This document shows, in pieces, positions 45,711 through 48,700 of a stretch of DNA of 50,554 nt (positions are counted from its first letter, which is position 1; every line of letters starts with the position of its first letter). The notes beneath the pieces were generated by a model. The model searched no databases. It was not told where the DNA came from and saw only the letters and a program-made list of their open reading frames with translations. The position numbers and the translations under genes were made by a program. The stretch lies in the NCBI GenBank assembly GCA_026706425.1, contig JAPOYW010000327.1, forward strand, positions 1-50,554, in the 5' to 3' direction. The stretch is from Gammaproteobacteria bacterium. Its GTDB lineage: Bacteria > Pseudomonadota > Gammaproteobacteria > Pseudomonadales > Azotimanducaceae.

Positions 45711-48700
45711 ATGGAGCATGAAACGCCAAGCACGTCGTCCTTCGCCGACCAGCCCGCAGCGACCGTTGCGGGTCGCCCGGCCTTGTCGCCGTCGGATGTT
45801 GCAGCCGCGCCGGGCACCTTGCGCGTCATCAAGCGCAACGGTGCGGTTGTGACCTACGACGACGACAAGATCCAGATCGCGCTGACCAAGGCGTTTCTCG
45901 CCGTCGAGGGCGGCACGGCTGCCGCTTCGTCGCGCATACGCGACATGGTGGCCACACTGACCGCGCAGGTGACCAGCACGTTCCAAAGGCGGCTCCCATC
46001 TGGCGGCACCATCCACATCGAGGAGATCCAAGACCAGGTCGAGTTGGCGCTCATGCGCTCCGGGGCGCACAAGGTGGCGCGCGACTACGTGCTCTACCGC
46101 GAAGAGCGGGCGCGCATCCGCGCCGCCAACACGAGCGCCGAAGCCGCGGATGGAGCCGACGCGGGCGGGGAGATCCTCGTCGTCGCGAGCGACGGCGAAC
46201 GCAGACCCTTGGACGCGGTCCGCATGCGCACGCTGGTCACCGAAGCCTGCGAGGCGCTTAACGACGTCGATCCGGAACGCATCATCGCGGAAGCGCGGGC
46301 CAACATGTACGACGGCATCGCCGAGGACGATGTCGCCACCGGTTTGCTGATGACGGCGCGCGCGCTCGTCGAGGTGGAACCGAACTACACCTACGTCACC
46401 GCCCGCCTGCTTCTCGACAAGCTGCGCTCGGAGGCACTGCGATTCCTCGACACCGGTGTCGTGCAAGCCACGCAGGCCGAGATGGCGTCCCTCTACGCAC
46501 CGACGCTCGCCGCCTTCGTCGACAAGGGCGTGAAACTCGAGCTGCTCGCGCCAGAGCTCAAGCGCTTCGACCTCGACCGGCTCGGCGCGGCGCTCAAGCC
46601 CGAGCGCGACCTCCAGTTCAACTATCTCGGTCTGCAGACCCTGTACGACCGCTATTTCATCCACTCGGACGACACCCGCTTCGAACTGCCGCAGATCTTC
46701 TTCATGCGCGTCGCGATGGGCCTTGCGATCCAAGAGGAGGAGCCCGAACAGCGCGCCATCGAGTTCTACAACCTGCTGTCCTCGTTCGACTACATGAGTT
46801 CGACGCCGACGCTGTTCAACGCCGGCACGCTCCGCTCGCAGCTCTCGTCGTGCTTCCTCACCACGGTGTCGGACGACCTCGACGGTATCTACAGCGCCAT
46901 CCGCGACAACGCGCTCCTATCCAAGTGGGCCGGCGGGCTCGGCAACGACTGGACGCCGGTGCGGGCACTCGGCGCGTACATCAAGGGCACCAACGGCAAG
47001 TCGCAGGGCGTCGTGCCCTTCCTCAAGGTGGTCAACGACACCGCGGTGGCCGTGAACCAGTGCTTCGCGCCGGAGACGCGCCTGCACACCGGCGACGGCA
47101 TCAAGGCCATCAAGGACGTGGTTGCGGGCGACCTCGTGCTGGGCCGGCGCGGCGAGTACCGCGAAGTGCAGCAGACGATGACCTATAACCAGAACGACCC
47201 CATGGTGGAGATCACCGTAGAGCACGCCCTGCAACCCCTGCGGGTCACGACGGGGCACCCCCTATGGGCGATCTCCGCCGCCGCGGCCGACGGCCAGCCC
47301 GGGTGGCTTGACGCCGGCCGGTTGCAGCCCGGCGACCACGTCGCGCAGACCATTCCGCAGGAGGTGGTGCCGGTGGGCGATCTCGATGCCGACGATGCCC
47401 GCATGTACGGCATCCTGCTCGGCGACGGGCACTGGGCCAAGGGCGACGCGCGGTGGGGTGTGTCGGGCAACCCGTTGCGCGACGCGCACCTCGACTTCGT
47501 CGCCGCCTACCTCGACAAGCGCGGCGTCCACTACACCGTAGCGGACTGCGGACGACGTTATCGGCAGATCCGCTTCGCGGCGGAGGTTTCCATCGCACGC
47601 GACGGCACGACCGGCGCGTACCGCGGCGCCACCGGCGGCGCATTGCCGTTCGCGCCCGAGGATGTCTACGACGGCGACGGCCGCAAGCGGTTCGCGCCGC
47701 GTTTGACCCACCTGCCGAGGCATCAGACCCTGGCGCTGCTCCACGGCCTGCTGGACGCCGATGGCGTTGGTCGAGGCGAGGAGATCTGCTTCACCACGAC
47801 GTCCGAAGCCTTGGCCGAGGGCTTGCGCTACCAGATGCTCCGCCTCGGCGTGCCGACCAGCGGGCAGACTCGCGAGCGCCGGTGTCCAGGAGCTGAGGAC
47901 GGCCACCCCGACACCACCTTCGACGGCATGGTCACCACCTTCGACGTCAGCATCCCGGCCGTGCCCGAACTCGCCGACCGCTTGGACTGCCAGGCCGTGC
48001 GGGAGCGCGACTGGCTGGCTGTGAACAACTGGCTGTTCACGCCCGTGCGCGCCGTAACGCCGGTGGAACCGGCGCCCTTCGTCTTCGACCTCAAGGTCGA
48101 AGGCGACCAGTCCTACATGACGACCAGCGCCTTGGCGCACAACGGCGGCAAACGCAAAGGTGCGGTGTGCTCGTACTTGGAGGCGTGGCACCTCGACATC
48201 GAGGAGTTCCTGGAACTGCGCAAGAACACTGGCGACGACCGCCGCCGGACGCATGACATGAACACGGCCAACTGGGTGCCCGATCTCTTCATGAAGCGGG
48301 TCTTCGAAGGCGCGGATTGGACGCTGTTCTCCCCCAACGACGTCGCCGACCTGCACGATCTCTACGGCGCGGCTTTCGAGGCGCGCTATCTCGAATATGA
48401 ACGCATGACGCAGACCGGCGAACTCGCGCTCTTCAAGCGCGTCAAGGCGGCGGAGCTGTGGCGCAAGATGCTGTCCATGCTCTTCGAGACCGGACATCCG
48501 TGGATCACCTTCAAAGACAGCTGCAACGTGCGCTCGCCGCAGCAGCACGACGGCGTGGTGCACTCCTCCAACCTGTGCACCGAGATCACGCTGAACACGT
48601 CGCGGGAAGAGATCGCGGTGTGCAACTTAGGTTCGGTGAACCTGGCCCAGCACGTCGAGGACGGGCGGCTCAACACGAGAAAGCTCAAGAAGACCGTCCG

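Follow-up and report, generated by a model that had tools for sequence, protein, structure and literature searches.

Canonical protein splicing requires a Cys, Ser or Thr as the first residue of the C-extein (position +1), both for transesterification and for the final acyl shift (PMC4031507), and surveys of insertion sites place inteins as "preceding a nucleophile" (PMC5784728). Type A bacterial intein-like (BIL) domains, such as Clostridium thermocellum BIL4 (PDB 2LWY), have a HINT domain, an N-terminal Cys and a C-terminal His-Asn with no Cys, Ser or Thr after it; for these domains, attack of an amine on the thioester after Asn cyclisation has been proposed (PMC4031507). We analyzed a stretch of 50,554 nucleotides from a gammaproteobacterium of the Azotimanducaceae (assembly GCA_026706425.1, contig JAPOYW010000327.1, forward strand), hereafter the window. 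Its nrdA gene, which encodes the alpha subunit of class Ia ribonucleotide reductase (RNR), is interrupted by an intein that is followed by a Gly. According to our in silico analysis, this intein belongs to a family that is best explained as functional, long-resident homing-endonuclease inteins targeting loop 2 of RNR between the conserved Gln and Gly-Gly. The Gly+1 arrangement, kept in more than a hundred bacterial and giant-virus genes, is probably an uncharacterised way of maturing RNR rather than an error or a dead element. No description of a Gly+1 RNR intein, or of a "class 4" intein, was found in the literature searched.

An nrdA intein has also been reported in cultured bacteria. In Azotobacter chroococcum NCIMB 8003 (Achr_15980) it covers residues 442-800 (359 aa, LAGLIDADG-3), and it is conserved in A. 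vinelandii DJ (Avin_33290); the genome paper does not mention the +1 residue and states that both species also carry nrdJ (PMC4465626). Judged by this published description, its position and length put it at the same site in a Pseudomonas aeruginosa-type NrdA, and it is very probably a member of the same family. Searching the literature for InBase names such as "Avin RIR1" returned nothing. The InBase registry probably listed an "Avin RIR1 BIL", which would mean that its curators saw the missing nucleophile.

The intein and its insertion site in NrdA

The product of the window nrdA fits a class Ia NrdA of the P. aeruginosa type, with an ATP-cone, an all-alpha domain, a 10-stranded barrel and the loop-2 motif Q-G-G-x-R. 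It matches Pfam Ribonuc_red_lgC (1.2e-189) in two stretches, Ribonuc_red_lgN, and the ATP-cone in two stretches. The NrdA equivalog NF005544 of NCBIfam is matched with 1684 bits, and its best stretch resumes at protein residue 807, which is model position 438. Both the catalytic NLC motif (SSNLCTEI) and the C-terminal Cys pair (in the tail DCEACQ) are readable in the translation.

The insert begins with CFAPETRLHTGDG and ends with PFVFDLKVEGDQSYMTTSALAHN (last letters TSALAHN). A preliminary description of this DNA had credited it with the hallmarks of a class 1 intein (Cys1, a TxxH block, two LAGLIDADG motifs and a terminal His-Asn), and both the motifs (Table 1) and the predicted fold bear this out. 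The AlphaFold2 model of the intein (predicted local distance difference test score, pLDDT, 80.6; predicted template modelling score, pTM, 0.82) retrieved whole LAGLIDADG inteins with Foldseek at 1e-19 to 1e-14, namely PI-SceI (1.9e-19), TliVMA (template modelling score 0.65-0.67), PhoVMA and PI-PfuI, and I-DmoI-type endonucleases were matched as well. The Hint sequence was matched only weakly, by Hint_2 at 26.0 bits and by Intein_splicing at 22.5 bits, each under its Pfam cut-off, and the single intein-related NCBIfam match, to intein-containing RecA, was weak and far under its cut-off. The Hint assignment therefore rests on fold and motifs. GC content at third codon positions (GC3) is 0.89 in the intein and 0.88 in the exteins, which points to a long residence.

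The preliminary description had also placed the insertion exactly between NQ and GG, with no residue left over. Exact removal of the 361 codons yielded a 228-aa test segment that aligned end to end and without gaps with the intein-free NrdA of P. aeruginosa (PDB 5IM3; E 2.3e-131), and this agrees with the proposed site. The P. aeruginosa protein likewise has a Gly at the +1 position. Shifting either junction by one residue would give AVN↓NGG, NQC↓GKR or AVN↓GG (arrows mark the junctions), none of which reproduces the conserved motif; the junctions therefore stand. In loop 2 of the Escherichia coli enzyme, S293, Q294 and R298 form the link between the substrate (its base and its phosphates) and the specificity effector. 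By correspondence of the motif (N/S)-Q-G-G-x-R, the intein would lie in specificity loop 2, after the residue equivalent to E. coli Q294 and before that equivalent to G295, and Gly+1 is, as judged from the sequences, a residue conserved by the host enzyme itself.

In its fold, its blocks A, B, F and G, the endonuclease placed inside the Hint domain and the precise in-frame site, the nrdA intein resembles class 1 LAGLIDADG inteins (PI-SceI/VMA1, TliVMA, PI-PfuI and the RNR "RIR1" inteins). A Hint fold with precise removal, Cys1 with TxxH, and blocks F and G with His-Asn are all present, and the Cys, Ser or Thr at +1 is absent. The nrdA intein differs from class 1 inteins by this Gly+1, with which the canonical steps 2 and 4 cannot run, and by a splicing domain that standard intein sequence models barely detect. 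Class 3 inteins have no N-terminal nucleophile, and carry a Trp-Cys-Thr motif and an obligate Cys in block F (PMC2807308). A class 3 mechanism is ruled out by the presence of Cys1 and by a block F (PFVFDLKVEGDQSYMT) without Cys, and it would still need a +1 nucleophile.

Gly+1 in bacterial and viral relatives

The DNA at the C-terminal junction of the window reads CAC AAC ↓ GGC GGC AAA, so that Gly is the +1 residue, as first noted in the preliminary description. A scan of genome contigs with one query sequence returned one close relative, L001 (JAPOVK010000062.1, "Gammaproteobacteria bacterium COS1_bin_18"), which is an independent metagenome-assembled genome (MAG) with an intact NrdA, an intein about 90% identical to that of the window and the junction HN↓GG. 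A metagenome scan with an intein alignment found 162 relatives, 80 of which were fetched. Both junctions were readable in the window, in L001 and in 78 metagenome loci, and all 80 sequences read Cys1...His-Asn↓Gly-Gly. Four codons are used for Gly+1 (GGC in 57, GGT in 15, GGG in 5 and GGA in 3). The mean pairwise identity of these 80 inteins is 63%, and Gly+1 is universal even in relatives that are just 48-60% identical. Nearly all metagenome nrdA loci are long open frames of 1300-1750 aa, and residues C1, T63, H66, D122, D234, D343, H360 and N361 are conserved in 49 non-redundant inteins (<80% identical).

A profile search of 1.84 billion representative proteins yielded 140 matches below 1e-30 (clusters at 50% identity). 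Among the matches listed, 68 domain matches span the whole profile, and nearly all of these are RNR alpha subunits interrupted at the same site, [N/D]Q↓C...HN↓. Gly+1 occurs there in about 42 representative clusters, with GGKRKG in bacterial NrdA and GGGKRxG or GGNKRPG in eukaryote-like R1; Ser+1 occurs in 18-19 representative clusters with the extein SGKRxGS, and matches with Cys+1 are few, weak and outside RNR. Among the 25 loci in IMG/VR, many of them giant-virus MAGs, all but one (24/25) carry Gly+1, within intact open reading frames (ORFs) that span 765-1524 aa. No match to the family was found in the annotated phage and plasmid collections searched.

These counts bear on the simplest alternative, a sequencing error or a very recent Ser/Cys-to-Gly mutation at 48144, in whose favour a single substitution separates GGC from AGC or TGC. 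A base-call error, one of the options of the preliminary description, is excluded by L001 and the 78 metagenome loci that read HN↓GG with four different Gly codons. A very recent change is excluded by Gly+1 in 80/80 sequences, 24/25 viral loci and about 42 clusters, and by the Gly that intein-free NrdA holds at the same position. We give this alternative next to no probability.

In a neighbour-joining tree, the bacterial clade is wholly Gly+1; the catalytic residues of this clade are invariant. Ser+1 forms one main subclade of the eukaryote-like superclade, which also has a Gly+1 subclade, and it recurs in a second, small pair. Members with Ser+1, which read HN↓SGKRxGS and include at least one viral locus (L098), are homologous to the Gly+1 inteins and share their loop-2 site, their blocks and their endonuclease. 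They differ from Gly+1 members by a canonical Ser nucleophile, by the extein motif QSG instead of QGG, and by a Gln, Asp or Glu after the block-B His, where most Gly+1 members have a Pro. This Pro67 (window 47259..47261) is found in 46 of 52 Gly+1 inteins, whereas none of the 18 Ser+1 inteins has it. The covariation is a lead only, being phylogenetically confounded, and His-Pro occurs in some canonical inteins too.

We then compared dN/dS (Nei-Gojobori) among the window, L001 and a further locus, L002. The exteins gave 0.042, 0.076 and 0.086 (dS 0.19-0.35) and the inteins 0.22-0.32 (dS 0.23-0.38). These low values indicate that NrdA is strongly constrained while bearing the intein, and that the intein itself is constrained. 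Over 71 loci, intein and extein identities correlate weakly (Spearman 0.36), and in some pairs the inteins are far closer than the conserved extein cores (for example 72% vs 47% for L016/L035), a hallmark of homing among divergent nrdA genes. The intein is mobile and has spread horizontally, occurs in several NrdA clades and is tolerated upon arrival. It has what a homing-endonuclease intein should have: two LAGLIDADG motifs with D122 and D234, an endonuclease (predicted from sequence) within the Hint domain, and discordant identities. In P0075 (L107:3001-7260, in an nrdA-nrdB operon on a 1.42-Mb contig labelled circular) the endonuclease is degenerate, and Cys1 and His-Asn↓GG are both kept, which suggests that selection acts on processing and not on homing. 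P0052 has degenerate LAGLIDADG motifs and keeps Cys1, its sequence being cut ahead of the C-terminal junction. Examples of the degenerate motifs in these two proteins are FYGIFLAQGH and LLEAKEGL. Both look like decay stages of a homing cycle in which processing would still be under selection. The preliminary description had also suggested that the intein was recently disabled; the universal Gly+1, the invariant catalytic residues, the intact ORFs, the low dN/dS and the horizontal spread rule this out.

Some members show features of their own. The inteins of the window, L001 and L002 are 359-361 aa long vs 378 aa in most relatives, a clade-specific shortening, and lack about 14-17 residues after block B ("...GVPMEQANxRTxxWLxKGK..."), at about 47280-47285 of the window, past intein residue 74. 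P0037, a divergent 330-aa fragment, ends with TSALARN↓GGKRMGSFAPYI; it has Arg for the penultimate His and an extein without Cys+9. P0117 is the sole member with Ser1 for Cys1 (NQ↓SFTGDT...VVHN↓GSKRKG), and has Gly+1 followed by Ser+2.

Some NrdA proteins of the family bear further, unrelated inteins with a canonical Thr+1 or Cys+1 at the classical sites NLC↓T and NL↓C, which offer an internal contrast. The first of these is a LAGLIDADG intein that interrupts the catalytic-Cys motif (SSNLC↓CIAADQ...ITKN↓TEITLN), with a canonical Thr+1 and Lys for the penultimate His; it is carried by L047, L054 (ORF residues about 1009-1371), L056, L076 and L080, and also by P0063 and P0073. A third type lies one residue upstream (SSNL↓CVAPET...GVLTGN↓C(Q/T)EI), the catalytic Cys itself being its +1 residue, and is carried by P0064, P0068, P0087, P0099-P0101 and others. 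Up to three inteins are present per RNR alpha subunit.

Possible routes to a mature alpha subunit

With the conserved loop-2 Gly opening the C-extein, canonical transesterification is impossible in the window NrdA. By analogy with what is proposed for type A BIL domains, the route that we consider most likely is processing without a +1 side-chain nucleophile, for which we see the chances as evenly balanced. An N-S acyl shift would first form a Cys1 thioester with Gln(-1). Asn361 would then cyclise with the help of His360 and cut the bond between intein and C-extein, and the freed, unhindered alpha-amine of Gly+1 would attack the thioester and thereby join Gln to Gly without a scar. The Hint active site and the two halves of the RNR barrel would keep the thioester and the Gly+1 amine near each other, Gly offering the least hindered amine.

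Several observations are consistent with this proposal. The conserved Cys1/TxxH and His-Asn suggest continued selection for thioester formation and for Asn cyclisation. The strong constraint on NrdA with the intein in place counts for the maturation of a working enzyme. The Ser+1 sister clade would give a continuous loop 2 by canonical splicing, so a ligated product is evidently required at this site. Several Gly+1 exteins have no Cys, Ser or Thr in their first 12 residues (GGKRNGAFAAYL, GGVRKGAVAAYL and GGGKRKGAFAIY), and thus no alternative nearby nucleophile is general.

The last point concerns a possible remote nucleophile, for example Cys+9 (GGKRKGAVC), which would take the N-extein by transthioesterification and, after Asn cyclisation, pass it onto Gly+1 by a long-range S-to-N shift. 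The window and all proteobacterial-type exteins examined have Cys+9, but intein-free P. aeruginosa NrdA has it too; it therefore goes with the NrdA clade rather than with the intein. No Cys, Ser or Thr occurs within the first 12 C-extein residues of P0063, P0066, P0073, P0093, P0124 and L083, and the P0037 extein (GGKRMGSFAPYI) has no Cys. With so many Gly+1 exteins lacking a nearby Cys, Ser or Thr, Cys+9 is ruled out as a general remote nucleophile, and we consider this route very improbable.

Among the three options of the preliminary description, BIL-like splicing without a +1 nucleophile fits best, although the definition of a BIL itself does not suit an intein with an endonuclease at a conserved site. 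The nrdA intein shares with type A BILs the HINT domain, the N-terminal Cys, the C-terminal His-Asn and the lack of a +1 nucleophile. BILs lie in variable regions of non-conserved, non-essential bacterial proteins, have no homing endonuclease and are not found at conserved sites. In contrast, the nrdA inteins carry a LAGLIDADG endonuclease, occupy a conserved RNR loop, home between alleles and occur in giant viruses too. Among PDB sequences, the N-terminal half of the intein matches 2LWY best, with E 0.065 for the single sequence and 0.0015 for the family profile; this match is weak and covers about 75 residues, and gp41-1, PI-PkoII and PI-SceI score nearly as well. Host context and endonuclease rule out filing the nrdA intein as a BIL, and the sequence link to 2LWY is weak. 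The nrdA intein may work most like a type A BIL, yet it is not one.

Other points weigh against ligation onto Gly+1. In canonical inteins, replacement of the +1 nucleophile abolishes splicing, and no report of splicing for the Gly+1 RNR family was found in the literature searched. The Ser+1 clade replaces an otherwise conserved loop-2 Gly, so that Gly+1 may be a handicap. Type A BILs splice inefficiently and yield mostly cleavage products (PMC4031507, PMC7664689), and one BIL spliced only once its +1 residue had been changed to Cys (PMC4031507). Azotobacter also has the class II nrdJ (PMC4465626), and NrdA need not be the sole RNR in every host.

The main rival is cleavage without ligation, in which the intein would cut itself out at both ends, by hydrolysis or thiolysis of the thioester at Cys1 and by cyclisation of Asn361, and the fragments of 450 and 530 aa would stay assembled as a nicked, active alpha subunit. 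The residues needed (C1, TxxH, HN) are exactly those conserved, no new chemistry is invoked, and cleavage is the dominant outcome in BILs. Precedent comes from Aeromonas phage Aeh1, whose NrdA-a and NrdA-b make up an alpha subunit that is broken by a homing-endonuclease element and is fully active without a continuous chain (PMC3045599). However, in Aeh1 the split is at the level of the gene, is made by a free-standing HNH endonuclease gene with no Hint domain, and lies elsewhere, between the equivalents of C439 and C462; tail peptides are needed there (PMC3045599), and the window NrdA has none. In the window, the nick would fall inside specificity loop 2, beside the Gln that reads the substrate base, where a free end should disturb specificity control, and the Ser+1 sister clade presumably makes a continuous chain at the same site. 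On balance, cleavage without ligation seems unlikely to us, while still deserving to be taken seriously.

A further alternative is retention of the insert, or an nrdA that is a dispensable or dead copy backed by another RNR. Azotobacter possesses nrdJ too (PMC4465626), and many database proteins of the family are frameshifted fragments. Such frameshifted or truncated proteins, broken inside the intein or nrdA, are found even on contigs of 0.5-3 Mb (P0002, P0003, P0005, P0007, P0012-P0015, P0018, P0020, P0021 and P0047), and are named just "LAGLIDADG family homing endonuclease, partial", the intein being unflagged by standard annotation. Clusters at 90% identity of these fragments hold intact members (P0200, 1464 aa; P0201, 1451 aa), and we therefore attribute the frameshifts to assembly errors; a pseudogene reading is ruled out by these intact cluster mates and by the intact metagenome and virus ORFs (1150-1750 aa). 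Against a retained insert or a dispensable gene, extein dN/dS values of 0.04-0.09 indicate a constrained and functional NrdA, and the junction residues are kept in 80/80 sequences, where neutral decay would have lost Cys1 and His-Asn. A 40-kDa domain in loop 2, at the dimer and specificity site, should moreover block function. We regard this alternative as quite improbable. The expectation in the preliminary description of an enzyme that is only cleaved, or else remains unspliced, is not supported by the evolutionary evidence for a functional NrdA; its cleavage half survives as the rival discussed above.

Genes of the window and implications

In the window, nrdA is followed by nrdB, its intact operon partner, which is truncated by the end of the window (Table 1). 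NrdB has a Pro/Ala-rich N-terminal extension of about 125 aa (window 49822..50200) ahead of the R2 domain, whose Pfam match begins at residue 127. In the ten large window ORFs that were scanned, no second RNR alpha subunit was found, nrdB being the sole RNR gene besides nrdA. The window also carries four genes for TonB-dependent receptors (4425..7457, 10890..13391, 14308..16305 and 23261..25744, all on the - strand) and one for an AcrB-type efflux pump (30799..33966, - strand).

Table 1. Coordinates of nrdA, its intein and nrdB in the window
Feature	Position	Strand	Description	Basis
nrdA	45711..49736	+	class Ia ribonucleotide reductase alpha subunit; 1341-aa precursor, 980 aa without insert	ORF
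N-extein	45711..47060	+	450 aa; last residue Gln, equivalent of E. coli loop-2 Q294	gapless 5IM3 alignment
Intein	47061..48143	+	361 aa, NrdA residues 451-811; Hint splicing domain with inserted LAGLIDADG homing endonuclease	motifs, AlphaFold2 model, Foldseek
Block A	47061..47099	+	CFAPETRLHTGDG; Cys1, presumed N-S acyl-shift nucleophile	translation; conserved in 49 non-redundant relatives
Block B	47235..47270	+	PLRVTTGHPLWA; Thr63-x-x-His66, then Pro67	translation; T63 and H66 conserved
LAGLIDADG motif 1	47397..47432	+	ARMYGILLGDGH; Asp122	translation, family conservation
LAGLIDADG motif 2	47736..47771	+	LLHGLLDADGVG; Asp234	Pfam LAGLIDADG_3 3.7e-07, above cut-off
Block F	48075..48122	+	PFVFDLKVEGDQSYMT; Asp343 conserved; no Cys at F:4	translation, family conservation
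Block G	48123..48143	+	TSALAHN; penultimate His360, terminal Asn361 (presumed cyclising residue)	translation; HN in 80/80 junctions
+1 residue of C-extein	48144..48146	+	Gly (GGC), first Gly of loop-2 QGG	DNA read, 80/80 Gly
C-extein	48144..49736	+	530 aa and stop	ORF translation, 5IM3 alignment
nrdB	49822..50554	+	R2 subunit, truncated by window end	Pfam Ribonuc_red_sm 1.2e-37, residues 127-243

A Cys, Ser or Thr at +1 is the rule held to define inteins, and it is the main practical limit on traceless ligation and semisynthesis. An abundant natural family with Gly+1 implies either efficient nucleophile-independent splicing or a second natural RNR that works while nicked, and either outcome is relevant to intein biochemists and RNR enzymologists. 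Tentatively, and with confidence falling a little short of an even balance, the family may represent a fourth mechanistic class of true inteins: widespread, bearing a homing endonuclease and splicing efficiently and scarlessly without a +1 side-chain nucleophile, with the RNR barrel maybe templating the aminolysis. If ligation is true, the Gly+1 inteins, together with the Gly+1/Ser+1 sister pairs, would make a comparative system and a starting material for scarless Xaa-Gly ligation. The question is directly testable, as Azotobacter is cultured and has a reported nrdA intein at the same position. With the intein located in loop 2, its processing could gate both the activity and the specificity of RNR.

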